The notes under the pieces: generated by a model
Told to the model about the DNA's origin: nothing
What the model saw: the letters and a program-made list of their open reading frames with translations, nothing else
Databases searched by the model: none
DNA from: an uncultured Dehalococcoidales bacterium
GTDB lineage: Bacteria > Chloroflexota > Dehalococcoidia > E44-bin15
Direction: 5' to 3'
Length of the DNA: 44,177 nt
Assembly (NCBI GenBank): GCA_964448395.1
Contig: CAYUWM010000006.1
Span: forward strand, 1-44,177
Program-made: the position numbers and the translations under genes
Part shown: positions 8,345 through 23,575 of the stretch, piece by piece
How positions within the stretch are numbered: the stretch's first letter is position 1
How the letters are laid out: every line of letters begins with the position of its first letter

Positions 8345-9778
8345 TCATTCGATCCCAGCAATCCTTTTAGCCTTCGTTTTGCACTGTTCTAAATCGCAGC
8401 CCGATGCCGCGATGGACTTAAAGGTCTGCACTGCGCCGCCTCCGCTGATGCACATTGCATGGTACCACCCGGCGAACTCGGAGGCGGTCATATCCTCTAT
8501 CAGTTTAAAAGCGCGAATCCGGTCTTCGGTGGACACATCGTCCTTACCCTTATAGTATTTCTCAAGGTATTTGCCGATCTCAGGATTGAAATAGTCTTTC
8601 TCCGAGGCCATCGTTGCCACCAGCCCGCCGGCGGCATCCTGCATGATGAATCGATCTTCTCCTACCCGCTTTGAGGAGAATACCTTACCGGTTGCCACCG
8701 TCGCCAGTTTGGGGCTGAAAATGCCCGATTCATGTTTCCATCCCTCGACCGCGGCATAGGTTATCAACGAGTCCATTATCTGAACCGCCATCGACATCTC
8801 GCACATATTGTCGACAATGTGAGCCGCACCGGCTACTCCATTATAGTCTGCGATTAGCCCTGTGGCCCCCAGTGAAAGCTCCATGTTATTGCGGCGGCAC
8901 ATGCATTTATGCCAGGCGTGTGACGCCCCCAGAATGACCCCGAATATGATGCCCGGCCCGTACTCGCCACACATGAACACCCGCTCCCAGGGCACGAACA
9001 CGTCATCGAAAACTATCATCGATTCCACGTGGCCGCCGTATTTCGAGCTTATCGGATTCTCCAGCTGCTTCGATTCGGCAGGGGCATGTCCCCGCTTGCA
9101 GATGAACGTTATCCCCTCGGCATCCACCGGTGTAAAGAAACCTACGAAATAATCCTCCGCGAACTCAATCTCCATAATACACAGCATATCGGTATACGGG
9201 GCGGCCGTGCTGTGGGACTTGGCCCCCCTGACCACTATGCCATCCTGCCTCTTTTCGACAACATGCAGGTACATATCGGGGTCAGCCTGCTCCGTTGCCC
9301 CCTTGCTCCTGTCGCCCTTGGGGCTTATGAACCCGCCGCCGATGATCCAGTCCTCCCTCTGCGCCTGCTTGACTATCTCAACCACATTCTGATGGTAACT
9401 GCTTCCGGTTGCCTTATCGATATCATGGCTGGCGGCCCATGCCGCATGCAACACATCAGCGGTTATACACCTGTAGGAACAGGGGCAGGGGCTTTCGCCC
9501 ATGCCCTTCATCAACTTTATCTTGGCAAAGGCATCCTGCTCATCCCGCATCAGGTGCGTCCATCGGCTTATCTCCTCACCGATGATGGGAGACACTACCC
9601 TGGAGAGATCAGAGCACTGCTTGTCGTGGCACATCTGGAAGGTCGTCGCTGCCGACTCAATCCCCGCCCTGAAAGCGGGGTGATCGACGATATTCTCTAT
9701 CTTCTCCCCCTCCATGTATACGTTAGGCTTCTGTTTCCTCAGACTCTCGATATACTCTTCTCGCGTACGTATGCCCAC
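8345..9778 (-). CDS. 4-hydroxybutyryl-CoA dehydratase / 4-hydroxyphenylacetate 3-hydroxylase family protein
   Basis: 'EEYIESLR...VYMEGEKI', 'PKGDRS', 'VVEKRQDGIVVRGAK', 'FDDVFVPWERVFMCGE'. CxxxC (CSYRC) and Hx6C (HAWHKCMC) present. Confidence 0.88.
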   Translation of the reverse strand: MGIRTREEYIESLRKQKPNVYMEGEKIENIVDHPAFRAGIESAATTFQMCHDKQCSDLSRVVSPIIGEEISRWTHLMRDEQDAFAKIKLMKGMGESPCPCSYRCITADVLHAAWAASHDIDKATGSSYHQNVVEIVKQAQREDWIIGGGFISPKGDRSKGATEQADPDMYLHVVEKRQDGIVVRGAKSHSTAAPYTDMLCIMEIEFAEDYFVGFFTPVDAEGITFICKRGHAPAESKQLENPISSKYGGHVESMIVFDDVFVPWERVFMCGEYGPGIIFGVILGASHAWHKCMCRRNNMELSLGATGLIADYNGVAGAAHIVDNMCEMSMAVQIMDSLITYAAVEGWKHESGIFSPKLATVATGKVFSSKRVGEDRFIMQDAAGGLVATMASEKDYFNPEIGKYLEKYYKGKDDVSTEDRIRAFKLIEDMTASEFAGWYHAMCISGGGAVQTFKSIAASGCDLEQCKTKAKRIAGIE

Positions 9779-9790
9779 TAGACGCCCCCT

Positions 9791-10612
9791 TTACTGGCTT
9801 TCCTGGTCCCCTTTTAAGAAACCCAAGACCTCTCTATTGAACCGTCCGCTCATCTCCACGAAAAACGCGTGCGAGCCTCCCTCGAACTTCACCAGCCTAG
9901 CACCGATAATCCTGTCCGCCAAAGTCTCGGAAGAGGTGAACGGTATTATCCTGTCGCCGGTCCCAACTATCACCAGTGTGGGGGCCTTGATATCACGCAA
10001 ACGATCCAACGTGCTATGAGAGTTGGCCGCTCTGAGCTGTCCTTTGATCCCACCGACCCCAATATACCTGAGAAAAACCTTGAAAATGGGAACTATACAG
10101 AGCTGGAACAATCTCCTGTTGAAAGCCAGGGAGGTTACCGCGCCCATTACCTGCTGCAGATCCTTATTTGCCAATGCTTCAAGATCTTCTGCGGAAGCAC
10201 CCGCCTCCAAACCCATCTCCCGCACTACACTGTCATTGATATTCCCCGTATCAGCGGTGGTACATACCAGCACAAGCTTATCGACCCTCTCCGGGTAGTT
10301 GATGGCCAACTCCTGAGCAATCATCCCGCCCAAAGAGGTCCCTACTATATGTGCCTTATCGATTCCCAGGTGATCCATCAGGCCGATTGTATCATCCGCC
10401 ATTGTCCTTACAGTATATGGCTCATTAGGTTTGCTGCTCTTCCCCACACCCCTGTTATCGAAAATGACCACCCTGTAGTGCTTCCTGAAAGCGTTTAGCT
10501 GGAAGAACCACCCTGACCCCGGGCCACCAAGACCCATTATGAAAACCAGTGGCTCCCCCTTGCCGTGTACTTCGTAATATATATTGACTCCGTTTACCTT
10601 TGTTCTAGGCAT
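9791..10612 (-). CDS. Alpha/beta-fold hydrolase (enol-lactonase/esterase-like)
   Basis: GTSLGG nucleophile elbow, 'FDNRGVG', Asp in 'GTGDRI', His in 'GSHAF'. Start moved to the ATG at 10612, which follows an AGGAG RBS. Confidence 0.88.
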   Translation of the reverse strand: MPRTKVNGVNIYYEVHGKGEPLVFIMGLGGPGSGWFFQLNAFRKHYRVVIFDNRGVGKSSKPNEPYTVRTMADDTIGLMDHLGIDKAHIVGTSLGGMIAQELAINYPERVDKLVLVCTTADTGNINDSVVREMGLEAGASAEDLEALANKDLQQVMGAVTSLAFNRRLFQLCIVPIFKVFLRYIGVGGIKGQLRAANSHSTLDRLRDIKAPTLVIVGTGDRIIPFTSSETLADRIIGARLVKFEGGSHAFFVEMSGRFNREVLGFLKGDQESQ

Positions 10613-10731
10613 TACGCCACTCCTTACTGCTAAATTACACAATACTGAGGCTACTTTAACCACGCGACAGCAGTAATGTCAATAGCATAAAGTAATATCG
10701 ATACCTGCCCCATATACGCCGCAGGAGCACC

Positions 10732-10760
10732 TTGACAGCATCTCTAGGATATAGTAAACT
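10732..10760 (+). promoter_or_regulatory. Sigma70-type promoter for the methyltransferase operon leader
   Basis: TTGACA (10732-10737), 17-nt spacer, TAAACT (10755-10760). Confidence 0.65.
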
Positions 10761-10939
10761 CTATAGAGTAGGTATGTAACATGTGATGATTTGCCATTGA
10801 GGTGTCTGGATCCGTATTGAGAATCACCCCCCACGAAGAATTAAACTCCACTCCCCTTCACTTTAAAACCTCAAATAGCCCCCGGCACTGGCCCCCTGTT
10901 TCCCCCAGAATCACCCTCCGTAAACTTACCTCCTAAGCT

Positions 10940-11187
10940 AGCCACATTCCTACTGTGGCTCCGAGAGAGAACGGAATCTCGTGGGTGAAAGCCCCATGAG
11001 ACCGGCGAGAACGGCGTCTTAGAGGGCGTTGAAGGATGACGGCGGATTCGGGTTGCCTGAGGCAAATGGTGCAGCGACTCATCTGGTGAACGCTGAACCT
11101 TCTTTGACCGACGGCGAGAACAAGAAAACAAGCAATGCTAAATGAATACCGTGCCCCGGAACGAAGGTGCCTCGACAGGTCCTTTTT
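10940..11187 (+). ncRNA. Putative structured RNA resembling group IIC intron domain I, without domain V or an RT ORF
   Basis: Hairpins AGCCACA/TGTGGCT, CTCGTGGGT-GAAA-GCCCCATGAG and TTGCC-TGA-GGCAA. Ordered motifs GGGTGAAAGCCCC, CCGGCGAG, TTAG, GAAGGA, GGCGG, CCTGAGG, AAAACAA, AATAC, CGGAACG and CGACAGG match my recollection of IIC intron domain I. Confidence 0.5.
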
Positions 11188-11233
11188 CAGGCTATGGTAT
11201 GCATTGCGGGCTGGTCAGGCAGGGGGATAGATC

Positions 11234-11917
11234 ATGGTTGATTCTATGAAGGATTTCAAAATAGAGCTCGATGAGAAGAGCGTATACCGCATCCTCGGCT
11301 ATTCCAATGGACACAAGCCAAAATCTTCTATCCGCTCGCTGGTGGACACGGAGATGGCACAGGCCTACGATCTCATCCACCCGTCATGTTCCTACCAGAT
11401 AATGGATATCAAGCGAATACGCCGACCCAGAGTCAACCTGGTTAACGGAACAAATATAACCCTCACCAGCGAGGTTCTGAGCTGGGGGCTACATCACTGC
11501 GAGCAGGCGGTCATATTCGTAGCCAGCATCGGACAGGCACTGGAGGCAAGGGTAACGCAACTGATGGCTGATGGTCAGAGCGGGAAGGCAGTCATACTCG
11601 ATGCCATAGGCTCCGAAGCCACAGAGAAAACGGTATGCTATCTCCAAGACCAGATCCGAGAGGTCGCCAAATTTGATGACGGAGAATCCACGCTGCGTTA
11701 CAGCCCCGGCTATTGCGATTGGGACATCACCCAGCAGAAGGTACTGTTTAAAGCAATGGACTCTATCCCCACGCAGGTGAGCCTCAGCGACGAGTGTGTC
11801 ATGACGCCCCGTAAGTCCGTCTCCGGCATCATCGGACTGGGGTGGAGCGAGAAGCCCCGCCTCAGGCTTTCACCGTGCCGATTCTGCACCCGACAGGATT
11901 GTAAAAACAGGAGGTAG
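11234..11917 (+). CDS. MetH reactivation-domain-like protein of corrinoid methyltransferase operons, with a C-terminal Cys cluster
   Basis: 'ILDAIGSEA.E', 'RYSPGYCDW', 'CVMTPRKSVSGIIG', C-terminal 'PCRFCTRQDCKNRR'. Confidence 0.8.
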   Translation: MVDSMKDFKIELDEKSVYRILGYSNGHKPKSSIRSLVDTEMAQAYDLIHPSCSYQIMDIKRIRRPRVNLVNGTNITLTSEVLSWGLHHCEQAVIFVASIGQALEARVTQLMADGQSGKAVILDAIGSEATEKTVCYLQDQIREVAKFDDGESTLRYSPGYCDWDITQQKVLFKAMDSIPTQVSLSDECVMTPRKSVSGIIGLGWSEKPRLRLSPCRFCTRQDCKNRR

Positions 11918-11918
11918 T

Positions 11919-13352
11919 TTGGTCAGAAAAGGTCTGGAAGGCGGTAGATATAAACCGCTATCAGAAGAAGATATCAGCCGTATCCACGAAACTGCGATGA
12001 GGGTTTTCGAGGAGGTGGGGGTCCAGGTCAACTCCGAGAAGGCCTTAAACTATTTCCGGGATGCCGGAGCCAAGATCGATGACCACGTCGTAAAGCTGCC
12101 TCGGGAGACGGTGATGGGTCTCATCAGCAGGGCGCCGTCCGAGATCACCCTTTACGGTCGCGATCCAAAGCATAATCTGCATCTTGGTGATGCCAGGGTC
12201 TACGCCGGCACGGGCGGCACCGCCCTCAACATCATCGACGGCGTCTCCGGCGAGAGGCGTCGCGCCACACTCCAAGACCTGAAAAACATCGCCAAACTGG
12301 TCGACAGCCTGGGAAACATCCACTTCTTCCTTTTGCCGACTTACCCCGATGACGTCCCGACAGATATAGTGGATGTCAACCGTTTCTTTGCCGGCCTGGA
12401 CAACACCTCCAAGCACATTATGGGCGGGGTCTACACCCGTGAGGGGCTCCAGGATGTGCTCCGCATGGCACAGATTGTCGCCGGCTCGGCAGATGAACTG
12501 CAGCGGCACCCCGTAATTTCACTTATATTATGTGCCATCAGCCCGCTGATGATAGATAGCGCCTATGGCGACATGATAATCGCCGTGGCCCAGGCCGGCA
12601 TCCCCGTAGCCCTTCCCGCAGAACCCCTGTGCGGCTCTACCTCCCCGGTAACCCTCGCCGGTAACACTGTCATCCAAACCGTAGATTCGCTGGCAGAGGT
12701 ATGCCTCACCCAACTGGTTAACCCCGGCACACCGGCGATATTTGGCTCCGTAGCTTCCAGCAACGACTTCCGCGATCTAAAATACATCACCGGATGCATC
12801 GAGATGGGGCTGCTCAACACCGCCAGCGCCCAGATGGCCCAGCTCTACAAGCTGCCATTCTATGCCACCGCCGGCATGTCCGACTCCAAGGTGGTCGATG
12901 CCCAGTGCGGCTACGAATCTGCCCTATCCCTTCTGCTGTGCGCCCTGGGTGGGGCAAACTACATCCATGATGCTGCCGGGTTGATGGACTTCGCCCTCAG
13001 CGTGAGCCTGGAGAAGTACGTGACCGACAATGAGATCATCGGCATGGTGATGCGGGCGGTGGAGGGGATAAAGGTAAACGATGATACTCTGGCCTTCGAC
13101 CTGATTAAAGATGCCGGCCCCGCGGGGCACTTCATCTACGCCAGGCATACCCGCAAGCACATCCGCAGCGAGCACTACCAGCCCGCCCTCAGCGACAGGG
13201 ACCATTTCAGCGACTGGCAGGCTAAGGGCAAGCCAGACACCGCCGCCAGGGCAAAGGCCAGGGCTGAAAAGATACTTTCCGAACCCGGATATCGGCTGCC
13301 GGAGGATACACGCCGGCAAATAATCGCCGAGATACCGGGGATAATAGATTGA
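11919..13352 (+). CDS. Non-pyrrolysine trimethylamine methyltransferase family (MttB/COG5598) protein 1
   Basis: 'IHETAMRVFEEVGV', 'GSTSPVTLAG', 'AGMSDSKVVDAQCGYE', 'IHDAAG', 'GPAGHF'. No in-frame TAG. TTG start. Confidence 0.9.
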   Translation: MVRKGLEGGRYKPLSEEDISRIHETAMRVFEEVGVQVNSEKALNYFRDAGAKIDDHVVKLPRETVMGLISRAPSEITLYGRDPKHNLHLGDARVYAGTGGTALNIIDGVSGERRRATLQDLKNIAKLVDSLGNIHFFLLPTYPDDVPTDIVDVNRFFAGLDNTSKHIMGGVYTREGLQDVLRMAQIVAGSADELQRHPVISLILCAISPLMIDSAYGDMIIAVAQAGIPVALPAEPLCGSTSPVTLAGNTVIQTVDSLAEVCLTQLVNPGTPAIFGSVASSNDFRDLKYITGCIEMGLLNTASAQMAQLYKLPFYATAGMSDSKVVDAQCGYESALSLLLCALGGANYIHDAAGLMDFALSVSLEKYVTDNEIIGMVMRAVEGIKVNDDTLAFDLIKDAGPAGHFIYARHTRKHIRSEHYQPALSDRDHFSDWQAKGKPDTAARAKARAEKILSEPGYRLPEDTRRQIIAEIPGIID

Positions 13353-13359
13353 GGTTATC

Positions 13360-14166
13360 ATGCTGATCATCGGGGAGAAGATAAACGCCACCAGCAAACG
13401 TGTGGCTGAGGCTATAATTAACAAGGATGCCTCCTTCCTTCAGGGGCTGGCCCAGCGACAGGTGGAGGCCGGTGCCGACTACATCGACGTGAATACGGGC
13501 ACCGGGCAGGGTAGGGATCAGGAGATAACCGACCTCAAGTGGGCGATAGATGTGGTGCGACAAGCCGTCGACGCACCGCTATGCCTCGACAGCTCCGATC
13601 CCCAGGCATTAGCAGCGGCAACGGCACATTATACGGGGTCCGAGCTGATAATCAACTCGGTGAACGCGGAGAAGGACAGACTGGATCCCATCGGCCGGGC
13701 GGCGGCCGAGCGCGGGGCGGGAGTGATAGCCCTGGTCATGGGGGAAGGGGGCATACCCCGCACGGTCGATGAGCGGGTTGCCGCCGCCGACCTTATTATG
13801 AATCACTTGAAACAGCTCGGCGTGAAAGAGGAGCAGGTCTATTTCGATCCCCTGGTGCTTCCCATCTCCGTAGACACCGAGCAGGGGCTGGTAACGCTCC
13901 AGACCATTGAGCAGATCAAGTCGCGGTACCCGTCGGCCAAGACTGTGGTCGGGCTGAGCAACATCTCTTACGGGCTGCCCCAGAGGGGCATAATCAACCG
14001 CGCCTTCCTGCTGATGGCGGCCGCGGTAGGGCTGGACGCCGCGATAATGGACCCCACCGATATGCGGATGATGAGCATGGTCCGGGTCTCCGATATGCTC
14101 ATCGGGAAAGACCCGGCATGCAAAGGCTTTATCAAGGCACATCGTAAGGGTATGCTACCTGAGTAA
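13360..14166 (+). CDS. Methyltetrahydrofolate:corrinoid methyltransferase (AcsE / MetH pterin-binding domain)
   Basis: 'IIGEKIN', 'GADYIDVN', 'PLCLDS', 'INSVNAE', 'YFDPLVLP', 'GLSNISYGLP'. Confidence 0.92.
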   Translation: MLIIGEKINATSKRVAEAIINKDASFLQGLAQRQVEAGADYIDVNTGTGQGRDQEITDLKWAIDVVRQAVDAPLCLDSSDPQALAAATAHYTGSELIINSVNAEKDRLDPIGRAAAERGAGVIALVMGEGGIPRTVDERVAAADLIMNHLKQLGVKEEQVYFDPLVLPISVDTEQGLVTLQTIEQIKSRYPSAKTVVGLSNISYGLPQRGIINRAFLLMAAAVGLDAAIMDPTDMRMMSMVRVSDMLIGKDPACKGFIKAHRKGMLPE

Positions 14167-14190
14167 GAGCTAACGATAGCGAGGTATGAA

Positions 14191-15723
14191 TTGGCTAGAG
14201 AAGGTATATTAATACAGAATCCCCTTACCCGGTTGAACCGGGAACAGGTAGAGAGAATCCACCGGGCTTCAATGGACATATTACTCGACCCCGGACTGCT
14301 AAGCTTCAACAAAGAGGCTGCCGAGATATTCGGCAGCAACGGCGCAGATGTCACGCCGATCACCCCCAGCGATCACCCCTGCTGGCGGGTGAAGATGCCG
14401 CAGAAGCTGGTGATGGACGCCATCGACAGCGCGCCCAAGACTGTGAAGCTGGGGGCGAGGAACCCGGACAACACGCTGATCTTGAAAGGCGACGAGCCGA
14501 GGGTGCATTTCATAACCGGGTCGGAGACCAATATCTGGCTCGACGTCGACTTCCCAACCTACGTGAAGAAAGACGATCACAATATCGAGATCCAGTTGCC
14601 GCAGTTCAAACCCAGACGAGGAACGCTTGCCGACCTGTGCGACTCGGCGCACGTTTGTGAGCACCTCCAGACGGTGGACGGGTATATCCGCACCGTGAAT
14701 ATACAGGACAAGGACATCACCGAGGAAAACAAGGACGTCAATAAATTCTTCGCCTCACTGAACCACAATACCAAGCACTTCATGTCGGGACTGACCAGCC
14801 TGAGCCAGCTGGACAACGTGGTTAAGATGGCCCGGATAATCGCTGGGGGCGAGGAAAAGTTGAAGGAGAACCCGATCATCTCTTTCATAACCTGCCTGGT
14901 CAAGAGCCCCCTCCAGTTCGTCGAGGATACCACCGACACCTTCATGGAGGTATGCAAACGGGGGCTTCCCATTGTGGTCTCATCCTCGCCCCAGGCGGGG
15001 AGCACCGCCCCCATCAAGGAAGCCGGCATCATGGCCCAGATAAATGCCGAAGTGCTGGCCGGCATCACCCTCGGCCAGCTGGTGAACCGGGGAGCCCCGG
15101 TGATATACGGCAGCGTTCCGGTCAGGGCGCGCATGGACACCCTCGGCGATTCATACGGTGCCGTCGAGACCAGCCAGTACAATGTGGACTGCGCGCAGAT
15201 GGCCCGGTTCTATAGCATGCCCAACTATTCCACATCGGGTGTTTGCGATACCAAGGTACCGGGGCAGCAGGCCTCGATCGAGAGGTTGTTCTCAGACATA
15301 CTGGTCACCTTGAGCGGGCCCCAGTACCTGCACTGCGCGTTCGGCCTCCTCGACTGCAACTCCGTCTTCTGCCTGCTCCAGGCCGTCATCGACGACGCCC
15401 ACTTCCAGATGATCAAATTCTTCCTCAGGCAGCCGCGGATCGACGAAACCGAGATTTCCACCACCCTGAAGCAGATAAGAGAGGTGGTGCAGACACCGCA
15501 AAAGCTGTATATCAGCTACATCCGCAAGGTTATGCGCAGCGGGGAGCTCTCCCCGTCCTATCCTTTCGAGGGGGGAAGCGAGGGCGACGACGTGTTCCGG
15601 CTGGCATACGAAAAAATGAACGAGCTGCTCGCCAAGCCGGTGGAGCATATAGATAAGAATACCATCGCCAGGATATTCAGTGAAATACCCGGCATACTGC
15701 CGAGGCTGAACGTTTACGGATAA
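14191..15723 (+). CDS. Non-pyrrolysine MttB-family methyltransferase 2 (divergent)
   Basis: 'IHRASMDIL', 'AGSTAPI', 'AEVLAGITLGQLVNRGAPVIYG', 'SGVCDTK'. No amber codon. TTG start. Confidence 0.85.
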   Translation: MAREGILIQNPLTRLNREQVERIHRASMDILLDPGLLSFNKEAAEIFGSNGADVTPITPSDHPCWRVKMPQKLVMDAIDSAPKTVKLGARNPDNTLILKGDEPRVHFITGSETNIWLDVDFPTYVKKDDHNIEIQLPQFKPRRGTLADLCDSAHVCEHLQTVDGYIRTVNIQDKDITEENKDVNKFFASLNHNTKHFMSGLTSLSQLDNVVKMARIIAGGEEKLKENPIISFITCLVKSPLQFVEDTTDTFMEVCKRGLPIVVSSSPQAGSTAPIKEAGIMAQINAEVLAGITLGQLVNRGAPVIYGSVPVRARMDTLGDSYGAVETSQYNVDCAQMARFYSMPNYSTSGVCDTKVPGQQASIERLFSDILVTLSGPQYLHCAFGLLDCNSVFCLLQAVIDDAHFQMIKFFLRQPRIDETEISTTLKQIREVVQTPQKLYISYIRKVMRSGELSPSYPFEGGSEGDDVFRLAYEKMNELLAKPVEHIDKNTIARIFSEIPGILPRLNVYG

Positions 15724-15731
15724 GGGAGGGC

Positions 15732-16421
15732 ATGATGAGTGAAGATATTATCGCCGCACTCAAAGAGAACGTCATACAGGGGCGAAAGACCGCGGAAGAC
15801 GAAGGGATAGACGAGGACCTGACCGGTCCCGGTGTATTGGAGCTCACGCAGCAGGCGATAGACAGCAAGATACCGCCGGACAGGATAATCAAAGAGGGGT
15901 TGACCGCCGGTATGCAGGTGGTGGGGGAGAAGTTCTCGACCAAGGAGTATTTCATCCCCGACATGCTGGCCTCCGCCGATGCGGTAGGCGCAGCCATGGA
16001 TATCCTCAAGCCGCTACTCGAGTCGGCAAACGTCGAGACCAAGGGGAAATTCGCCATAGCCACGGTGCAAGGGGATATCCACGATATCGGCAAAAACATC
16101 GTCGCTATTCTTCTCAAAGGCGCCGGATACGAAGTGAGCGACCTGGGCATAGACGTGCCCGCTGAGAAAATAGTGGAGTACGTGAAGAACGAGAACCCCG
16201 ATTACCTGGGGCTCTCCGCCCTGCTGACCACCACCATGGTGGCGATGGGGCAGGTCATCGAAGCCCTGAAGGCCGCCGGCCTGAGGGACAAGGTCAAGGT
16301 GCTCATCGGCGGTGCGGCGGTATCCGAAGATTTTGCCCGCGAGATCGGGGTGGACGCATACTGCCTGGACGGTTTCGAGGCGGTCAAGGTGCTGGATGCG
16401 TTCCGAGAAGGTAAAATTTAG
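15732..16421 (+). CDS. Cognate corrinoid (B12-binding) protein, MttC/MtgC-like
   Basis: DxHxxG in 'QGDIHDIGKNIV', 'LGLSALLTTTM', 'LIGGAAV'. Confidence 0.95.
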   Translation: MMSEDIIAALKENVIQGRKTAEDEGIDEDLTGPGVLELTQQAIDSKIPPDRIIKEGLTAGMQVVGEKFSTKEYFIPDMLASADAVGAAMDILKPLLESANVETKGKFAIATVQGDIHDIGKNIVAILLKGAGYEVSDLGIDVPAEKIVEYVKNENPDYLGLSALLTTTMVAMGQVIEALKAAGLRDKVKVLIGGAAVSEDFAREIGVDAYCLDGFEAVKVLDAFREGKI

Positions 16422-16455
16422 GATATGACAACATTCGATTAAGGAGGTCTTGAGC

Positions 16456-17937
16456 ATGGCTGGAATTGCTGGAATTCTGGGTGCAGACAACGGACAGTTA
16501 GACCAGATGCTGGAGAGGACCAAGCACCGCGGTCCTCACGGTACATGGACCAACCGTGATGGACAAGTATCCATAGGATGCAACGAGCTGAACGTAGGTG
16601 CCGACTGCAAGGACGATTCGCATCACGCTTCCGACGGCAAGATAGCGGTGGTCATCGACGGACGCGTATACAACGACGATAAGGGTGAAAAAACCGATGC
16701 CGAGGCTCTACTGGACCTGTACAAAAAATACGGCACCAATTTTGCCAAGAAGCTGGATGGTGATTTCGCCTGCGCCGTATCCGACAATGGAAAGGTGACA
16801 CTGGCGCGCGACTGGGCCGGTGTAAAACCGATCTACTACGGCCACAACAACGGGAGTCTGTACTTTGCATCGGAGGCAAAGGCACTGGTGGGCATTGCGG
16901 AGGATGTAAAGGAGTTCCCACCGGGCTATGTTTATTCACGCGAACTGGGCTTCCAGCGGTTCTCCCTCGACGAGAATGAGACACCCGAATTCGAGAGCTT
17001 CGAACAGGCTAAGAAGGTGGTGAAACAACTGCTCATCGAGGCCACCGAGAAGCGGATGAAGGACAACTCGGTTAAGGGCGTGCTGCTCAGCGGCGGCCTG
17101 GACTCCAGCCTGATAACCTACATGGCAGCCCAGATAAAGCCGGATATAGAATGTTACACCGTAAGCATGGAGCAAGGCCAGGATCTGCCTCTGGCAAAGG
17201 ACGTTACTGAATACCTTGGGCTAAAGCACCATATCCTGATGTTCAGCGAGAAGGAGATAAACGAGATACTGCCACTGGCCATCCACCACCAGGAGATGTA
17301 CGAGGAAAGCTGCGTGCACGGCGCCATCGCCAATTTCATAGCGGGTCGATTCGTCAGCCCCATGGCCAAGTGCGTGTTCACCGGTGAAGGTGCGGATGAG
17401 TTATTCGATGGTTACGACGGACAATATAAAAAAGGCAACAATCCCGAAGAGGTAGCCGGTATCTGCGACAACCTGATAAACGTGGCCCACAATACAGCCT
17501 TGCAGCGGCTCGACAGGTTAAACGCCGCCAATGCCTATGAAAGCCGCACCCCGTTCCTCGACAACAGGGTGATGGGATTCAGCCTCAAGATACCGCTGGA
17601 GCACAAGATCCACGGCGAGGAGCAGACCGGCAAGTGGGTGGTGCGCAAGGCCTTCGAGGGCTGCCTGCCCGAACACATAATATTCCAGACCAAGCGTTTC
17701 TTCGCCCAGGGCTCGGGGGTGGCCTACATCATGCGGCAGCAGGCTGAGAAGCATATTACAGAGGCCGAGCTGGCAGAGTTCAACCGAACCGAGGGCAACC
17801 CCCATCTCGAATCGGTGGAGGAGCTGTACTACTACCGGATATTCAAAGAGACGCTTCCCGGCCCTCAATACGATCGGCTGGTGGGCAGATGGGACCCCCT
17901 GAGGCCGGATTTCTTCCTGAGGCAGGCGGGGGTATAG
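16456..17937 (+). CDS. Asparagine synthetase B-like ATP-dependent amide ligase lacking glutaminase catalytic residues
   Basis: PP-loop 'LLSGGLDSSL', 'GEGADELF.GY' and 'RTPFLD' intact. N-terminus is MAGIAG instead of MCGI, and 'DGRVYN' replaces NGEIYN. ATG at 16456 lies 8 nt after AAGGAGG. Confidence 0.88.
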   Translation: MAGIAGILGADNGQLDQMLERTKHRGPHGTWTNRDGQVSIGCNELNVGADCKDDSHHASDGKIAVVIDGRVYNDDKGEKTDAEALLDLYKKYGTNFAKKLDGDFACAVSDNGKVTLARDWAGVKPIYYGHNNGSLYFASEAKALVGIAEDVKEFPPGYVYSRELGFQRFSLDENETPEFESFEQAKKVVKQLLIEATEKRMKDNSVKGVLLSGGLDSSLITYMAAQIKPDIECYTVSMEQGQDLPLAKDVTEYLGLKHHILMFSEKEINEILPLAIHHQEMYEESCVHGAIANFIAGRFVSPMAKCVFTGEGADELFDGYDGQYKKGNNPEEVAGICDNLINVAHNTALQRLDRLNAANAYESRTPFLDNRVMGFSLKIPLEHKIHGEEQTGKWVVRKAFEGCLPEHIIFQTKRFFAQGSGVAYIMRQQAEKHITEAELAEFNRTEGNPHLESVEELYYYRIFKETLPGPQYDRLVGRWDPLRPDFFLRQAGV

Positions 17938-17940
17938 CCC

Positions 17941-18075
17941 GTAAAATCAGCCAAAAAGATTCTGTTCGTCCACCTCGAGGATTACTGGAACCGCAGCTAC
18001 GACGACTACTGCTCGTTAGAAAAAGATAACCCCAACATCCGCTTCGCCCATGACGGCATGCGTCTGACAGTGTAA
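17941..18075 (+). pseudogene. Orphan C-terminal fragment, probably of an MBL-fold (PhnP-like) hydrolase
   Basis: Translates VKSAKKILFVHLEDYWNRSYDDYCSLEKDNPNIRFAHDGMRLTV*. No start codon or RBS. The ending resembles MBL-fold 'F(A)xDG' termini. Confidence 0.5.
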
Positions 18076-18120
18076 AGAGCCAACCAACCCTAAAAACAGC
18101 TAGCGATTAGTTCATTCCGC

Positions 18121-18149
18121 TTGACAGTCGAGTATAATCAAGATATAAG
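18121..18149 (+). promoter_or_regulatory. Sigma70-type promoter for the PAS/GGDEF/HD-GYP gene
   Basis: TTGACA (18121-18126), 17-nt spacer, TATAAG (18144-18149). Confidence 0.6.
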
Positions 18150-18182
18150 ATGAAACAGTGACGCATCAGCTAAGGATCTTTT

Positions 18183-21100
18183 ATGGCAAATAAGGGCCAA
18201 AAAACAAAACAATCAAGTCCGCAAAGCGGCGAGGATAGGTTCAGGGAGCTGCTTGAATCACTGCCCCAGATGGTGTGTGAGACGGATCTGGAGGGGAACC
18301 TGACGTTCGCCAATAAGGTGGCCTTCGACACCTTCGGTTACAGCCAGCGGGATTTCGAACTTGGTATCAATATCTTCGATATGGTTTCCCCTGAGGACAG
18401 AGACGTGGCCATGGATAACCTGCTGAGGATAATCGCCGGTGAAAAGCTGGGCGCCGACGAATGCATGGCCCAGCGGAAAGATGGCACCAAGTTCCCGATC
18501 ATAGTTCAGGGAAGCCGTATTGTCAATGCTAAAGGTAAAGCCTCCGGATTCAGGTCATTTGTCATAGATATAAGTGAGCGAAAAAAAACAGAAGAGGCTC
18601 TCCGCGACTCGGAAGAGAAACTGCGCACCGTTTTTGAATCCATGGCAGACGCTATCGTCATCACCGATATGGAACTTAAAGTTATCGATGTAAATGAGGC
18701 TGCACTACGCATGGGGGGCTATAGTTCAAAGGAAGAACTCATAGGCATAAATGGACTTGACTTCATCTCTCCCAAAAACAGAATAAACGCGATCGAATCA
18801 TTCGGCAAGGCACTGGAATCGAGTCGCCCTGAAGAACGGCTGGAATACGCACTACTTCATAAGTCCGGCAGGGAACTGAACGTCGAATTAAGCATAGCGA
18901 TGCTGCACGACAGTTCCGGGAACCCAGCCGGATTCATCGCCATCGCCCGGGACGTTTTTGAGCGCAAGCGAACGGAGTCAGCGCTGAGGGAAAGCGAGGC
19001 CATGTTCAGAGAACTGTTTGAGAACATGAGCAGCGGCGTAGCCGTATATGAGCCTATAGATTCAGGTAAGCACTTCGTTTTCAAAGACCTCAACAGCGCA
19101 GGCGAGATGATCTCTAACGTAAAGAAGGATGAGCTTATCGGCAAAACCATTCACGAGGCCTTCCCTAACCTGAAACAATCGGGGCTGATTGACTCAGTAC
19201 GAAGGGTCTGGGAAACGGGAGAGCCGGAGCATGTACCGCCGATATATAACAAAGACGAACGCCGCTCCGGATGGAGAGAGAATAACATATATAAACTTCC
19301 TTCCGGCGATGTCGTTGCCGTCTATGACGATGTCACCGAGCGCATGGAGGCAGAGGAAGCGCTGCGGGAGTCGGAGGAAAAGTTCCGCCTGGTATTCGAA
19401 TCTATAGAAGATCTGCTCCTCGTCATGGATCTTGAGGGTATAATCGTAGAAGTTAACGAGGCAACACTTCATATATTCGGATACAGAAGTAAGGATGAAC
19501 TCATAGGCAGAAACAGCGCCGAATTGGTGGCAACGAAGGACCGTGGTAGAGTCATAAAAAATGCACTAAAAATTATAGAACAGGGCTCAGCCAGAGGGAT
19601 ATCAGAGTACCACGTCGTAACGCTTATAGCCGCAGATGGCCATGAATTCGAAGTTGAGTTCAGCATCGCTCTAGAGCGTGATGCCTCAGGTCAGGTTGTG
19701 GGCATCATCGGCATTGCTCACGACATCACCGAGCGCAAGCGCATGGAGGAAGCGCTGCGTGAGAGCGAAGAGAAACTCAGTGTCATGTTCTCATCCATCG
19801 AAGATGGAATCGTGGTCGTCGATCTGGCAGGTAATATCGTCGATGTGAACCGGGCAACGCTTCGCTTGCACGGTTATAGCAGCAGAGATGAGCTTATCAG
19901 TCGAAACAGCCTGGACCTCATCGCCGAGGATTCCCGAGCGGGGGCAATTGAGACTATGATGAAAGCGCTGGGGGAGAAACGGGGTGCCACACTGGAGTAC
20001 ACGCTGCTGAAAAAGGACGGGGGCAAGGCGGATGGCGAGGGTAGCGTCAATCTTTTTAGTGACAGCTCCGGGAATCCGCTCGGCATCGTTGTAGTGACCA
20101 GGGAGATCACTGCGCGCAAGCGAATAGAGCGAGCGCTGCGCGAATCTGAAGAGCGTTATCGCTCGGTGATAGAGAATGCAAACGATGCTATAGTTGTAGC
20201 CCAAGACGGTTTCCTCAGATTCTTTAACCCCAAGGCGATGGAGATCATGGGCTACTCACGGGATGAGCTTTCGTCCACACCCTTCCTCGATGTTATACAC
20301 CCCGACGACCGGCAGATGGTAGCCGACCGTCATCTGCGCCGACTCGCGGGTGAAGAGCTGCCCTCGGTATACGCCTTCCGCATCATTGACAAACGAGGCA
20401 ATATAAAATGGCTGGAGATCAACTCGGTGGTGATACAGTGGGAAGAGAAACCTGCTACCCTAAACTTCCTGAGCGATATCACCGAACGCAAGTCAGCGGA
20501 ACGGGTCCTCCAGAAACGCAATCGGGAACTCACCGCTATAAACGCTATAGCGCAGTCGCTGACTCAATATACCAGATTGAACAAGGTTCTTCAGACTGCG
20601 CTTTACAGCACCCTTGAGGTCACCGGCTTGCTCACTGGAGGCATATGGCTCCTCGATGAAGGCAAGGGTAAACTGGTACTTGCCATTCACAGGGGATTTG
20701 GCAGGAGATTCGAACGGGCTATGGTCAGAATGCCCATGGAAATAGGCGTCGCCGGTAAGGTGATGGCCATATCCGATATCCACGCAAACAAAGAGCTGCA
20801 TCCTAAGTACAAAGAGACAGCCCGCCTGGATGGCTTGCAATCCGCCATCAGCATTCCCCTTAAGTCAAAAGGTAAGACACTGGGAGTAATAAATTTATTC
20901 AGTCACAACCGCCGAGATTTCCCCGCTGAGGATATCCAATTGCTGGAGACAATAGGTGGCGAGATAGGTGTTGCCATCGAAAATGCTAAACTGCTCGAAA
21001 AGCTGAGTGAGCAATCCGAAACTGATGAACTGACCGGGCTGTATAACCGCCGCCATTTCTACGATACCCTCGATAACGAGACCTACAGTACATGGCGCTC

Positions 21101-22115
21101 CGGACGCTCTTTCTCCTTGGCCATACTCGACCTTGACGGTTTCAAGAGATACAATGACCGATTTGGCCACATCAGCGGCGATGCAGTGCTGAAGCACTTT
21201 GCCAACGCAATCAAGCTGGCTATACGCAAGAGTGATATCGCTTTCCGCTATGGCGGCGACGAGTTTGCTGTGATACTGCCATCAACCAGCGCCGATAGGG
21301 CTAAAAAGATTATCGAACGAATTAGAGATAAGTGGCCTAAAATTGCACAGGAACAGTATCCCGTTTTAGAAAACCCTATAAGGTTCAGCGCCGGAATAGC
21401 CCAGTTTCCCGACGATTCGGAAACGTCAGATGGCCTGGTTTTCCTGGCAGATACCTCCCTGTTTACCGCCAAAAGAGGCAAAGGCTACAAAACCACAATG
21501 GCATCCGAGCTCGGTGAACTCCCTATAGATGCCCGGGGCCCGGCAACGCTCGATCAGGTTTACGCCCTGGCATCCACCGTTGATGCCAGATCCCCCTACA
21601 CGTCCGGCCATTCTAACAGGGTCGCCACCGTAGCATCGGTGATAGGCAGGGCTATCGGGCTGTCTCCGGAGGAAATGGAACAGCTAACGACAGCCTCTTT
21701 GCTACATGACATCGGGAAGCTAGGCGTTCCCGACTTAATACTCAGGAAGCCTGAAACACTCACCAGAGACGAGCGTCGCGTAATAGAGAAACACGCTGCA
21801 GAAGGGGCTAAAATCCTCAGTCACGTGAGCGAGCTGACAGCACTGGCCCCCATAGTGCGGCATCACCATGAATGGTATAACGGAGAGGGCTATCCGGAAA
21901 GGCTGAAGGGTGAGGACATACCGCTGCTTTCCCGGATCATCACCGTGGCCGACTCGTACGACACCATGGTCACCCCACTGCCGCACCGGCAGGCTATGAC
22001 CCACGAAGATGCGCTGGACGAATTGAGGCGGTACGCGGGTGTACAGTTCGATCCCGATCTGGTAGAGTCATTCGCCGAAAGCGCCAGCGACGGCATTCCT
22101 CAGGCAGAAACCTGA
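18183..22115 (+). CDS. Multi-PAS + GAF + GGDEF diguanylate cyclase + HD-GYP phosphodiesterase
   Basis: Repeated PAS/PAC units ending in 'DI(T/S)ERKxxExALRxSE', a GAF domain, RKSD I-site with GGDEF, 'LLHDIGK' and 'GEGYP'. Confidence 0.93.
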   Translation: MANKGQKTKQSSPQSGEDRFRELLESLPQMVCETDLEGNLTFANKVAFDTFGYSQRDFELGINIFDMVSPEDRDVAMDNLLRIIAGEKLGADECMAQRKDGTKFPIIVQGSRIVNAKGKASGFRSFVIDISERKKTEEALRDSEEKLRTVFESMADAIVITDMELKVIDVNEAALRMGGYSSKEELIGINGLDFISPKNRINAIESFGKALESSRPEERLEYALLHKSGRELNVELSIAMLHDSSGNPAGFIAIARDVFERKRTESALRESEAMFRELFENMSSGVAVYEPIDSGKHFVFKDLNSAGEMISNVKKDELIGKTIHEAFPNLKQSGLIDSVRRVWETGEPEHVPPIYNKDERRSGWRENNIYKLPSGDVVAVYDDVTERMEAEEALRESEEKFRLVFESIEDLLLVMDLEGIIVEVNEATLHIFGYRSKDELIGRNSAELVATKDRGRVIKNALKIIEQGSARGISEYHVVTLIAADGHEFEVEFSIALERDASGQVVGIIGIAHDITERKRMEEALRESEEKLSVMFSSIEDGIVVVDLAGNIVDVNRATLRLHGYSSRDELISRNSLDLIAEDSRAGAIETMMKALGEKRGATLEYTLLKKDGGKADGEGSVNLFSDSSGNPLGIVVVTREITARKRIERALRESEERYRSVIENANDAIVVAQDGFLRFFNPKAMEIMGYSRDELSSTPFLDVIHPDDRQMVADRHLRRLAGEELPSVYAFRIIDKRGNIKWLEINSVVIQWEEKPATLNFLSDITERKSAERVLQKRNRELTAINAIAQSLTQYTRLNKVLQTALYSTLEVTGLLTGGIWLLDEGKGKLVLAIHRGFGRRFERAMVRMPMEIGVAGKVMAISDIHANKELHPKYKETARLDGLQSAISIPLKSKGKTLGVINLFSHNRRDFPAEDIQLLETIGGEIGVAIENAKLLEKLSEQSETDELTGLYNRRHFYDTLDNETYSTWRSGRSFSLAILDLDGFKRYNDRFGHISGDAVLKHFANAIKLAIRKSDIAFRYGGDEFAVILPSTSADRAKKIIERIRDKWPKIAQEQYPVLENPIRFSAGIAQFPDDSETSDGLVFLADTSLFTAKRGKGYKTTMASELGELPIDARGPATLDQVYALASTVDARSPYTSGHSNRVATVASVIGRAIGLSPEEMEQLTTASLLHDIGKLGVPDLILRKPETLTRDERRVIEKHAAEGAKILSHVSELTALAPIVRHHHEWYNGEGYPERLKGEDIPLLSRIITVADSYDTMVTPLPHRQAMTHEDALDELRRYAGVQFDPDLVESFAESASDGIPQAET

Positions 22116-22127
22116 TACACCGGATGC

Positions 22128-23432
22128 CTAAACCGGCGTGATACGAAGCTTGATATCCTCCACCACCAGCTCGGCGCTCTTGGCGCAAGCCGGCAGGCCG
22201 AGCCAGCCCGGCGGCTTCACCCCGTCCCCCACGTTGTACAGGTTCTCTATGGGGGTCTTCTGCGGCATATCATACCCCGGCCAGCTGAAATACCCGGGGC
22301 AATCCCCCCGGAAATAGCTCACCGTCAATATCTCGGCTCTGCTGTCGAAATCCGGTATATTATCCCTCAATTCTTGAATGATCTGCGCCTTATCTGCCTT
22401 TACATCGTAAGGCGGCAGCGAGGAAAGCGGCGTCCCCCCCGCCATCAGCATGTGCTTCCCCTCCGGTGCAAGCGCCGGACAAACCAGCGTCGGCGTGTTC
22501 AGACAGCTCAACCTCTGCCCCAGTATGAACACCAGAGAGTCACAATCAACCAGCGGCTCATCGCTGGCGACATGCACCGCAATGAAAGGCGCCGGCCTCA
22601 GCTTTTCTTCCATCAGGTCGAGGTACCAGCGTTCGAAGTTGTCGTCCCCCGCCAATTCGACCGTCTTTCTGGGGCCGGTGTTGCTGACCACCGCCTTGGC
22701 CTTAATCGCCATCGACCCTGCTCCATTACGGACCACCACCCCACAGGCCTTCCCTCCCTCTACCACGATACGTTCTGCCGGACAACGGGTCATCACCCGA
22801 CTACCCTTGGCCTCTATCGCCTTTACCAGCGATTCCATCAACACCAGGTTACCGTGTGGGGCGATCCCGACCCCGGTGCCCTTTTGCGCTTTCAGATAAT
22901 CGAAGAATTTACCCGCCGGCAGCTCGTCATCGTTGATGAAATGCGTGGGGCTGACCATGGACCAGAATACCCGCATAATCCTCTCGTTATCCGTAAACTG
23001 ACTAACCCACTCGCGCAGCGAGATATTATCTCCGGGCTGCTGCCAAACGAATGCCTTCTTCAACCCCTCCATCACCCGCGCCGTCTCCGATTCGTCACGG
23101 GCAACCTTGGAGATGAACGACCGCATCCCCCCCTTGGCCGGCATATCGTAGTCCTTGCCGTCCACCCGATATCGAAATGGCGAAGCGAGAGTAACGTCCA
23201 TCCTGGCCCCCACCGAATCGAACACCCGCTCCACCACTCCCCCAGTCTCTATCTCTATAGCGCCGGTGGTGATCTTGTATCCCCTGTGCTCGATGGTGGA
23301 GTTCCTCCCCCCTATACGGTTCATTTTCTCCGTCACCAGCACCTTATATCCGCTTGCGGTCAGCAGTGCCGCCGCCGAGAGCCCCCCCATCCCGGAACCG
23401 ATAACTACCACATCATAACTGTCTTGCTCCAT
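22128..23432 (-). CDS. Fourth phytoene dehydrogenase-like (COG1233) FAD oxidoreductase
   Basis: 'VIGSGMGGLSAAALL...EKMNRIGG', 'KTPIENLYNVGD'. GGAGG RBS. Confidence 0.85.
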   Translation of the reverse strand: MEQDSYDVVVIGSGMGGLSAAALLTASGYKVLVTEKMNRIGGRNSTIEHRGYKITTGAIEIETGGVVERVFDSVGARMDVTLASPFRYRVDGKDYDMPAKGGMRSFISKVARDESETARVMEGLKKAFVWQQPGDNISLREWVSQFTDNERIMRVFWSMVSPTHFINDDELPAGKFFDYLKAQKGTGVGIAPHGNLVLMESLVKAIEAKGSRVMTRCPAERIVVEGGKACGVVVRNGAGSMAIKAKAVVSNTGPRKTVELAGDDNFERWYLDLMEEKLRPAPFIAVHVASDEPLVDCDSLVFILGQRLSCLNTPTLVCPALAPEGKHMLMAGGTPLSSLPPYDVKADKAQIIQELRDNIPDFDSRAEILTVSYFRGDCPGYFSWPGYDMPQKTPIENLYNVGDGVKPPGWLGLPACAKSAELVVEDIKLRITPV

Positions 23433-23522
23433 TTGAACCTCCGACTAAACCATTATCCGGGGAAAGTCGCAGCCAGTCAATCCCGCACAACACCGAATAC
23501 ATCAGAGCCGATTTGGGTATCG

Positions 23523-23551
23523 ACAATTATCGTAATATACCACGATATTGT
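23523..23551. promoter_or_regulatory. Imperfect inverted repeat in the divergent promoter region (candidate operator)
   Basis: ACAAT(T)ATCGT-N8-ACGATATTGT, 24 nt upstream of the core-MetE ATG. Confidence 0.4.
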
Positions 23552-23575
23552 TTATACTATGAATAAAGGGGCAAC

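Follow-up and report, generated by a model that had tools for sequence, protein, structure and literature searches.

What additional, ATP-dependent step may be attached to corrinoid-dependent demethylation of amines, and can such demethylation extend further without pyrrolysine (Pyl), the 22nd amino acid? These questions are raised by an operon at positions 11234-17937 (+ strand) of a 44,177-nucleotide contig from an uncultured Dehalococcoidales bacterium (GenBank assembly GCA_964448395.1, contig CAYUWM010000006.1); this whole stretch of analyzed DNA is called the window below. In sediments and guts, major precursors of carbon, nitrogen, and methane include methylated amines (betaines, choline, trimethylamine [TMA], and relatives). 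Anaerobic, corrinoid-dependent demethylation comes in two known forms: one needs Pyl (for TMA, dimethylamine, and monomethylamine), and the other removes only a single methyl group from a quaternary amine (MtgB and its relatives). Most of the many non-Pyl MttB homologues found in genomes have no assigned function. Here, across two phyla of abundant sediment anaerobes, an ATP-dependent ligase with the fold of asparagine synthetase B (AsnB) accompanies a single MttB clade, MttB2.

The operon consists of six tightly packed open reading frames with gaps of 1-34 nucleotides between genes (lengths in amino acids [aa]; bit scores from profile searches):

11234-11917, +: ActD, 227 aa, MetH-activation-domain-like (PF02965, 29.2 bits against a cut-off of 25)
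11919-13352, +: MttB1, 477 aa, non-Pyl member of the MttB superfamily (PF06253, 386 bits; TIGR02369, 431.6, below the cut-off of 525)
13360-14166, +: MtxA, 268 aa, methyl-corrinoid:tetrahydrofolate (THF) methyltransferase (Pterin_bind, 87.5 bits; NF005719, 296, above the cut-off of 259)
14191-15723, +: MttB2, 510 aa, divergent non-Pyl MttB (PF06253, 200 bits; TIGR02369, 271.9, below 525)
15732-16421, +: corrinoid protein (CoP), 229 aa, base-off/His-on (B12-binding and B12-binding_2; the DxHxxG motif is DIHDIG, at 16074-16091)
16456-17937, +: AsnBL, 493 aa, AsnB-fold ATP-dependent ligase without Cys1 (Asn_synthase and GATase_7)

The window encodes a corrinoid-dependent methyl-transfer system composed of MttB-type methyltransferases, a His-on CoP, a CH3-corrinoid:THF methyltransferase, and a MetH-type reactivation protein, ActD, which presumably reactivates the corrinoid protein by reductive methylation. 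An earlier note on this DNA had described a six-gene operon of these families without a substrate transporter. The profile searches bear out all six reading frames and their assignments, and no transporter gene was found within the operon or adjoining it.

Conservation of the MttB2-corrinoid protein-ligase unit

The association of the ligase with methyltransferases was followed from two seeds. A ligase-seeded scan, with one genome per species, yielded 64 loci from Dehalococcoidia, Syntrophales, Desulfobacterales, and other Thermodesulfobacteriota, 47 of which extend far enough upstream (2.4 kb or more) to be evaluated; the ligase gene is directly preceded by those for MttB2 and CoP in all 47. 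An MttB2-seeded scan of metagenomes yielded 80 loci, and an AsnB-family gene directly follows the CoP gene in each of the 43 that have enough downstream DNA, at a median gap of 45 nucleotides. With both seeds combined, the MttB2-CoP-AsnB-family adjacency is kept in 90 of 90 evaluable loci. The earlier note had proposed that co-occurrence of the AsnB-like gene with MttBs be checked across genomes, and it is strongly upheld from both seeds and in both phyla. These loci come from metagenome-assembled genomes (MAGs) and metagenomes and are not phylogenetically independent; however, their spread over two phyla, their unrelated flanks, and the paralogue replacements within them argue against a sampling artifact. 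The sole ligase-seeded locus without MttB2 and CoP upstream (L058, 10001-11200) holds a 5'-truncated ligase (residues 89-487) among unrelated neighbors, and this copy is probably a rearranged fragment.

Conservation is unevenly distributed over the operon. The MttB2-CoP-ligase trio is 65 to 91% identical across Dehalococcoidia and Syntrophales/Desulfobacterales (MttB2, 65 to 89% across the 80 metagenome loci; CoP, 68 to 89% in related loci, where its gene invariably separates MttB2 from the AsnB-family gene). ActD, MttB1, and MtxA in the same loci are 33 to 64% identical, and the genes that flank the operon are mostly unrelated between loci. ActD heads the module in most related loci, at only 33 to 42% identity. 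MttB1 is 52 to 64% identical in most of them, a second subtype reaches 74 to 80%, and there are at least three subtypes overall. In many loci, a second corrinoid protein (CoP') stands in for MtxA or joins it. Several layouts occur ahead of MttB2-CoP-ligase: ActD-MttB1-MtxA, ActD-MttB1-CoP', ActD-MttB1-MtxA-CoP', and MttB1 alone. Syntrophales versions carry an extra MarR regulator and an MTHFR gene. The invariant core is MttB2, CoP, and an AsnB-family enzyme, with MttB2 as the constant partner and MttB1 as the variable member. Between the window and a sister contig, the ligase has the lowest ratio of nonsynonymous to synonymous substitution rates (dN/dS) of the six genes (0.06, against 0.09 to 0.12 for the others), and purifying selection is strongest on it.

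The position after the CoP gene is a slot with more than one type of occupant. In the 43 MttB2-seeded loci it is filled by a ligase of the window family (30 loci), by a second Cys-less clade (7 loci), or by a canonical Cys1 AsnB alone (6 loci), and the slot enzyme lacks Cys1 in about 86% of related loci, as it does in the window. Several loci also have a bona fide Cys1 AsnB (MCGIAGCFG..., 529 to 548 aa) directly after the Cys-less ligase.

L001 11552-13141, and L075, L079, L084, L085, L092, L097, L109, L126, and L155: Cys1 AsnB at or near the slot (NF006949, 599 bits in L001, above the cut-off of 499)

The loci with a Cys1 AsnB only were considered as recent deletions of the ligase, and this was rejected, as the CoP-AsnB gaps contain no remnant of it. 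A search of full-text literature found no meaningful link between MttB or corrinoid proteins and asparagine synthetase, and nothing relevant on MttB or corrinoid proteins in these lineages. Every component belongs to a known family; we read the combination as an undescribed MttB2-corrinoid-amide-ligase unit, an MttB system with an obligate ATP-dependent ligase partner.

Features of the methyltransferases and the ligase

For METHYLTRANSFERASES (MttB1 and MttB2), no internal stop codon and no in-frame TAG was found in either. The Pyl-equivalent codon is ATG (Met) in MttB1 (12876-12878, +) and GTT (Val) in MttB2 (15241-15243, +), so the Pyl-free character assigned to both MttBs by the earlier note is borne out. 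An Rfam PYLIS_3 match (12876-12975; 42.5 bits against a gathering score of 38) begins exactly at the Met codon of MttB1, and we read it as coding-sequence homology rather than a recoding signal. It looks like a relic of a Pyl-encoding ancestor or simply like coding similarity. Pyl read-through is ruled out by the lack of an internal TAG and by the start of the PYLIS_3 match at a Met codon.

The two MttBs share only 27 to 29% identity. MttB1 has MtgB of Desulfitobacterium hafniense as its best PDB match (E, 5e-94), and MttB2 matches MttB and MtgB (E, about 1e-37). In MtgB, glycine betaine is bound by Y97, R312, H348, and F356 (2026; PMC13080624). Across 25 orthologues of each protein, these positions are G/Y/D/A(C) in MttB1 and S/Y/C/N in MttB2; at the first two, both window MttBs (G/S, Y) resemble the Pyl-dependent TMA enzyme (G, Y). 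Judged by these alignments, both MttBs are without the Arg/His pair that holds the substrate carboxylate in betaine enzymes. The possibility that MttB1 is a glycine-betaine MtgB was ruled out, as it has none of the four betaine-binding residues. MttB2 has invariant Cys and His residues in the 25 orthologues that are absent from MttB1, MtgB, and Methanosarcina barkeri MttB, including a C-x3-H-x-C-x-H stretch (DLCDSAHVCEH) and a His-Cys at the MtgB H348 position. These may form a metal or redox site. The idea of a Zn/thiol-type methyl acceptor, homocysteine-like, was considered, and no recognizable Zn motif was found in MttB2 despite these residues.

The ligase more likely starts at ATG 16456 than at TTG 16450, with an AAGGAGG ribosome-binding site at 16441-16447, 8 nucleotides ahead, and the protein begins MAGIAG. 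The window ligase and 39 orthologues (40 sequences) were aligned with Escherichia coli AsnB. The Cys1 position (A2 in the window) is Ala in 39 of the 40 and Ser in the other, so the Ala is not a sequencing error, and the Asn74 position is Asp (D68, in the motif DGRVYN) in all 40. The two substitutions pointed out by the earlier note are therefore real and conserved; two more, which it did not mention, are likewise invariant in the family (R49 to Glu, E44; E76 to Arg, R70). Asp98 is retained as D81. The ATP/PP-loop motifs, also noted earlier as intact, are invariant: the PP-loop SGGLDS (S212-S217), E348, D351, E352, Y357, and K449 are conserved in the 40 orthologues and in 142 wider relatives, and R387 and K429 are likewise invariant among the 40 (retained synthetase residues are E311, D314, E315, and K413 in AsnBL numbering). 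One synthetase motif has changed. The E. coli TTIR is SCVH throughout the ligase family, with C286 and H288 in place of T322 and R324, and the canonical neighbor AsnB keeps SLVR there. From mutagenesis by Boehlein and Schuster, R324 of E. coli AsnB is reportedly needed for beta-aspartyl-AMP formation.

An AlphaFold2 model of AsnBL (pLDDT, 90; pTM, 0.90) has template modeling (TM) scores of 0.85 with E. coli AsnB (1CT9), 0.83 with human asparagine synthetase (ASNS), 0.74 to 0.76 with beta-lactam synthetase (BLS), and 0.70 with both TsnB9 and carbapenam synthetase (CarA). Sequence matches run in the same order (AsnB, E 1e-44; BLS, 1e-14; CarA, 1e-13). In ASNS, the residues E348, D351, and E352 bind the alpha-amino group of Asp (PMC6748925). 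Within the ligase family, mean pairwise identity is 67% in the N-terminal domain and 81% in the C-terminal domain. From its residues and model, AsnBL appears to be an AsnB-fold enzyme with a dead glutaminase, incapable of glutamine hydrolysis, and an intact adenylation site. The earlier note had likened it to beta-lactam synthetases; a glutamine-independent AsnB fold without Cys1 is indeed shared, but AsnBL is closer to AsnB (TM, 0.85 against 0.74 to 0.76). Membership of the BLS/CarA group was ruled out by distance in sequence and fold and by the methyltransferase-operon context. AsnB proper was also rejected, as four defining features fail: Cys1; R49, N74, and E76; the TTxR motif; and the curated score cut-offs (NF006949, 319.7 against 499; TIGR01536, 244.5 against 267.1). 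The earlier picture of a Cys1-less ligase holds insofar as the enzyme cannot use glutamine and keeps its adenylation site, but glutaminase death is not obligatory, because a bona fide Cys1 AsnB is the sole slot enzyme in 6 of 43 loci.

The ligase family has sharp limits. Over 120 clusters at 75 to 91% identity collapse to one representative at 50% identity, the next relatives are at most 42% identical, and public annotation calls the family only "asparagine synthase-related protein." These nearest relatives (33 to 42% identical, about 485 to 495 aa) are mostly Cys1-less (Ala or Ser), all with Asp at Asn74. Three further Cys-less clades, 36 to 41% identical to the window ligase, also occur in MttB clusters and replace one another in the slot. 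Including the window family, four clades have Cys at T322 and lack R324: the window family (EESCVHG), the very large clade 15 (FDEDCISG), clade 20 (EDCVYG), and clade 19. Replacement of R324 and T322 is confined to the MttB-linked clades; other Cys-less relatives retain both. Positions at least 90% conserved within each of three clades and different in all three number 25, of which 24 fall in the synthetase domain. They map to E. coli R324, S346, L358/Y359, A363, A379, M392, V397, A399, Y439, Q448, E450, Q451, and D454, around the adenylation site and the K449 loop; A399 is reported in the 1CT9 paper to be at the ammonia-tunnel exit. This pattern fits ligases of differing small-molecule specificity rather than equivalent ammonia-dependent asparagine synthetases. 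The idea that the dead glutamine pocket became an amine-specificity site is unsupported, as the N-terminal domain contains 1 of the 25 positions.

The clades differ in company. Locus L070 has the same operon, with MttB2 78% and CoP 81% identical, and a clade-15 ligase only 36% identical to that of the window, a non-orthologous replacement; L096 has two ligase clades side by side. In L071, L072, and L154, an MttB2-like gene (59%), CoP, and a 406- to 408-aa Methyltransf_25-like protein accompany a clade-20 ligase. L071 and L072, but not L154, also have an OpuA-type ABC transporter and, immediately 5' of the ligase gene, a gene for an HDAC-like amidohydrolase. The amidohydrolase gene of L071 is apparently translationally coupled to the ligase. 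In L155 to L157, L159, and L161, a clade-15 ligase sits between two short MttB paralogues (about 404 to 421 aa and about 392 aa), joined by a Cys1 AsnB in L155 to L157, by a DAO-type flavoenzyme, the metallo-beta-lactamase (MBL)-fold hydrolase F5, and a CN_hydrolase in L159, and by an OpuA transporter in L161.

L071 6926-7987 and 10104-13874; L158 4501-7166; L161 1-1070: OpuA/OpuAC-type ABC transporter genes by Cys-less ligases, in three unrelated contexts

OpuA/OpuAC is a glycine betaine/choline transporter family, and its presence beside related clusters speaks for a substrate that is osmolyte-like and imported, and against free methylamine. Separately, canonical AsnB-type enzymes with a C-terminally fused Methyltransf_25-like domain of about 400 aa were seen (P0236 and P0172), and MttB2-like clusters encode a free-standing homologue (36% identical) between the CoP gene and the clade-20 ligase (L071 4845-6065; L154 7737-8963). 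The 406-aa Methyltransf_25-like protein has only generic matches in PDB and NCBIfam.

A hydrolase gene is a frequent neighbor of the ligase. Intact F5 follows it in 35 of 84 evaluable loci, among them those on the sister contigs L005 and L074 (91% identical), and the F5 protein has only generic matches in PDB and NCBIfam. Only its end is left in the window:

17944-18075, +: 3' remnant, about 44 codons, of the MBL-fold gene F5 (Lactamase_B_2); its translation (...KKILFVHLEDYWNRSYDDY...IRFAHDGMRLTV, then stop) matches the F5 C terminus

The alignment to L005 jumps from 11480 to 12254, a clean deletion of about 770 bp that starts just past the ligase stop codon.

Possible roles for the ligase

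Read from the gene inventory, the conserved ligase linkage points to an undescribed ATP-dependent step in methylated-amine breakdown, and the ligase probably acts on a small-molecule intermediate of this pathway. The reading that we prefer, though only tentatively, is that it couples an Asp-type carboxylate to a pathway amine, which the MttBs demethylate before a hydrolase releases the product. The ligase would adenylate a carboxylate adjacent to a positively charged nitrogen. Since the Asp/AMP-binding residues of AsnB are all invariant, the beta-carboxylate of aspartate is the likeliest candidate; that the acyl partner is Asp itself is an even bet. This carboxylate would then be joined to the free nitrogen nucleophile of the MttB2 reaction, either an amine that is still partly methylated or the amine or ammonia that demethylation leaves behind. 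The resulting amide would serve as a covalent handle or means of capture in a sequence of ligation, demethylation, and hydrolysis, with the logic of gamma-glutamylation pathways. Methyl groups would be handed by the MttBs to Co(I) and then to THF, and the neighboring hydrolase would release the product. The variable MttB1 would probably take the first methyl group off an imported quaternary amine, and MttB2 and the ligase may handle a later step, one that needs Pyl in known biology.

The earlier note had proposed a more specific route, from free methylamine to an N-methylated amide of Asp or a similar acid and on to its demethylation. That exact order seems doubtful, because a true AsnB can fill the slot and OpuA points to imported quaternary amines, and because much ATP would be spent and an N-methyl amide donates its methyl group poorly unless strongly activated. 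A bolder form of the preferred reading makes the AsnB-fold ligase a chemical stand-in for Pyl, in that it would acylate a partly methylated amine (to a beta-aspartyl amide, for example) or turn an amino-carboxylate into an activated amide or acyl-ammonium, from which non-Pyl MttBs could move the remaining N-methyl groups to Co(I); we regard this as improbable. Were it true, Pyl-free sediment Dehalococcoidia and Syntrophales would gain amine demethylation beyond the quaternary stage.

Several lines of evidence favor the capture-and-release reading: the complete synteny from both seeds, the identity of the trio, and the lowest dN/dS in the ligase; the dead glutaminase joined to an intact synthetase site; the swaps of Cys-less clades beside unchanged MttB2 and CoP, with clade-specific residues in the synthetase domain; the recurrence of hydrolases by the ligase (F5, the HDAC-like enzyme of L071, and the CN_hydrolase of L159); the MTHFR gene inside the Syntrophales versions; and MttBs that are TMA-enzyme-like at the betaine positions yet Pyl-free. 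Other observations weigh against it. Six of the 43 MttB2-seeded loci have a canonical Cys1 AsnB as sole occupant of the slot, and several hold both a Cys1 AsnB and a Cys-less ligase. The planctomycete locus L158 has an OpuA transporter adjoining a clade-15 homologue with no MttB in view, and L073 contains a lone clade-15 homologue. The window itself has lost the F5 hydrolase and encodes no transporter. R324 is replaced, so aspartate may not be the acyl substrate. An N-methyl amide should donate methyl groups to Co(I) less readily than an ammonium does, and we know of no precedent for methyl transfer from an N-methyl amide to Co(I). Finally, the conversion of ATP to AMP and PPi at each turnover would be expensive for an energy-limited anaerobe.

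Some of this evidence would also suit other explanations. The retention of all Asp/AMP-binding residues, on a fold closest to AsnB, would be expected if the ligase were an ammonia-dependent asparagine synthetase, co-transcribed with the methyltransferases and fixing the ammonia freed from imported methylated amines once the cluster had removed their methyl groups and other enzymes their carbon skeleton. A bona fide Cys1 AsnB can fill the slot or adjoin the ligase, the former glutamine pocket is acidic (E44, D68, and D81) and would suit NH4+, ATP would be an ordinary biosynthetic cost, and the DAO and CN_hydrolase genes of L159 could release ammonia. We nevertheless consider this unlikely. Deeply diverged clades that differ in synthetase-site residues, two of them side by side, would be needless if all made asparagine; R324 and T322 are lost only where the clades are MttB-linked; and the link is specifically to MttB2-CoP and is absolute. 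Moreover, the operon has no ammonia-releasing step unless MttB2 demethylates monomethylamine, for which, without Pyl, we know of no precedent, and a glutamine synthetase and a GltS-like gene are present elsewhere in the window. The OpuA/OpuAC genes beside the ligase clusters of L071, L158, and L161 suggest instead that the acyl substrate could be the carboxylate of a betaine-type substrate or of its demethylated product, which would be amidated, giving the MttBs a carboxamide to act on, or closed onto its own amine in the manner of BLS and CarA. The lactam or acyl-ammonium from such closure would re-activate the remaining N-methyl groups, and a neighboring hydrolase (MBL-fold, CN_hydrolase, or HDAC-like) would later reopen the amide. 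A cationic substrate could offset the loss of R324, the acidic E348/D351/E352 would bind trimethylammonium as well as an alpha-amino group, the MttBs have Tyr, Asp, Cys, or Asn in place of the carboxylate-binding Arg/His of MtgB, and known Cys-less AsnB homologues are intramolecular ligases. This proposal is nonetheless rather improbable, as AsnBL is nearer AsnB than BLS/CarA (E, 1e-44 against 1e-14; TM, 0.85 against 0.70 to 0.76), a true AsnB can occupy the slot, and the N-terminal domain is still constrained (67% mean identity), unlike a pure vestige. We also know of no natural betaine amide or acyl-ammonium intermediate.

If the ligase acted on a protein or on the cofactor, its task could be to mature a side chain of MttB2 or CoP (by amidation or a cross-link, like the lasso-peptide cyclases) or to re-amidate salvaged corrinoid, so that it would make the methyltransferase active instead of processing its substrate. 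The swap of ligase clades (36% identity) while MttB2 and CoP stay unchanged speaks against this, as do the pairing of clade-15 ligases with other, shorter MttB paralogues, the retained acidic alpha-amino-binding cluster, typical of a small amino-acid substrate, and the failure to see a leader peptide or obvious acceptor motif. We hold it to be highly improbable, even though the MttB2-CoP tie is absolute whatever the MttB1 type, peptide-acting AsnB-fold enzymes exist (the lasso cyclase profile NF033535 matches AsnBL weakly), MttB2 is Pyl-free yet TMA-enzyme-like, and Dehalococcoidia are corrinoid salvagers. It is also very unlikely that there is no functional link, with an asnB-type gene that merely hitchhikes, or that the operon runs in the biosynthetic direction, which the earlier note had allowed, here from CH3-THF to an N-methylated amide osmolyte. 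Adjacency in 90 of 90 evaluable loci, despite unrelated flanks and paralogue replacement, is set against canonical asnB genes that are sometimes adjacent; the MTHFR, MarR, and reactivation genes suit catabolism; and methylation of an amine to the quaternary stage by CH3-THF is thermodynamically uphill, as is known from betaine-dependent methylation. In favor of biosynthesis, the AsnB-Methyltransf_25-like fusions (P0236 and P0172) and the free homologue in clade-20 clusters hint at a link between amide formation and methylation, and OpuA genes often go with osmolyte genes. The capture-and-release reading remains our choice. Even the dullest outcome, a dedicated ammonia-dependent asparagine synthetase, would define a large unannotated protein family.

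Genomic surroundings and comparison with known systems

The window from 9124 to 24000 aligns with the Dehalococcoidales MAG contig L005 at 81 to 84% nucleotide identity. The operon is preceded by a region of this kind:

10664-11233, +: intergenic region upstream of the operon, common to a divergent alpha/beta-hydrolase gene; likely promoter region, from a consensus scan only

The scan gave one sigma-70-like match (10732-10760, 10 of 12 positions), but promoter and terminator scans of the operon region performed no better than on shuffled sequences, and no riboswitch or other RNA element was found upstream of the operon at Rfam gathering thresholds. Directly 3' of the operon, 18183-22115 encodes a 1,310-aa signaling protein with five PAS domains plus GAF, GGDEF, and HD-GYP domains; L005 has the same gene after F5. 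An oxidative-stress cluster (26295-29845) comprises an SOD-like protein, a flavin reductase, a flavodiiron-type protein (ODP beta-lactamase fold plus flavodoxin), and rubrerythrin. A nitrogen-assimilation block on the - strand (35524-41458) encodes a glutamine-dependent NAD synthetase, glutamine synthetase, a GltS-like protein, and an NrpR-type nitrogen repressor; the glutamine synthetase gene (37300-38640) is about 20 kb from the operon, beside NrpR and the GltS-like gene. NrpR is best known from archaea and is found here in a Dehalococcoidia-like genome. Neighboring genes at 42376-44142 (- strand) carry dockerin and cohesin domains, which are unusual for Dehalococcoidia.

The closest described relatives of the methyltransferase part are MtgB/MtgC/MtgA of D. 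hafniense and the MtpB, MtcB, MtyB, and choline systems of Eubacterium limosum, with which we compared it. As in the Mtg system, a non-Pyl MttB TIM-barrel enzyme, a His-on CoP, and a pterin-binding CH3-corrinoid:THF methyltransferase are encoded together. In contrast to it, the window has two MttBs, both without the glycine-betaine residues, and its reactivation gene encodes a MetH activation-domain protein rather than RamA/RACE. Compared with the Pyl-dependent MttB of M. barkeri, the window MttBs share G/S and Y but have Met or Val in place of UAG/Pyl. The split MetH-like MtgBCD of Ruegeria pomeroyi (PMC12478193) resembles the window operon in being assembled from MetH-like activation, pterin-binding, and B12 modules. 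Set beside these two systems, the window operon is without a homocysteine-binding module and has the extra ligase. We know of no described MttB system in which an AsnB-family ligase is an invariant member.

The ligase, for its part, shares with AsnB and human ASNS the two-domain fold, alignment from end to end, the PP-loop, and the synthetase residues. It differs from AsnB in having A, E, D, and R for Cys1, R49, N74, and E76 and SCVH for TTIR, in a deletion of about 17 residues after N79, and in its corrinoid methyltransferase operon. BLS and CarA have the same fold without an N-terminal nucleophile and form an amide bond with release of AMP and without glutamine, but no antibiotic biosynthetic cluster surrounds the window ligase, and its N-terminal domain is well conserved. 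That the family can use nitrogen nucleophiles beyond NH3 is illustrated by the hydroxyamidotransferase TsnB9 (7YLZ), a family member in which hydroxylamine, a substituted ammonia, is passed to an adenylated carboxylate; unlike the window ligase, it has retained Cys1 and obtains its nucleophile from a glutamine analogue, and it is a weak match (E, 4.5e-10; TM, 0.70). The gamma-glutamylation pathways (GMAS/N-methylglutamate [NMG] for methylamine, PuuA/PuuD for putrescine, and Ipu for isopropylamine) share with the window system a proposed logic, not a family: a small amine receives an amino-acid handle at the expense of ATP, its alkyl part is processed, and the handle is removed by a hydrolase. 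Their ligases have the glutamine synthetase (GS) fold and form ADP, and the later steps are oxidative; the operon contains no GS-fold ligase with NMG synthase and NMG dehydrogenase. The window system, in contrast, combines an AsnB-fold, AMP-forming ligase with corrinoid methyltransferase partners.

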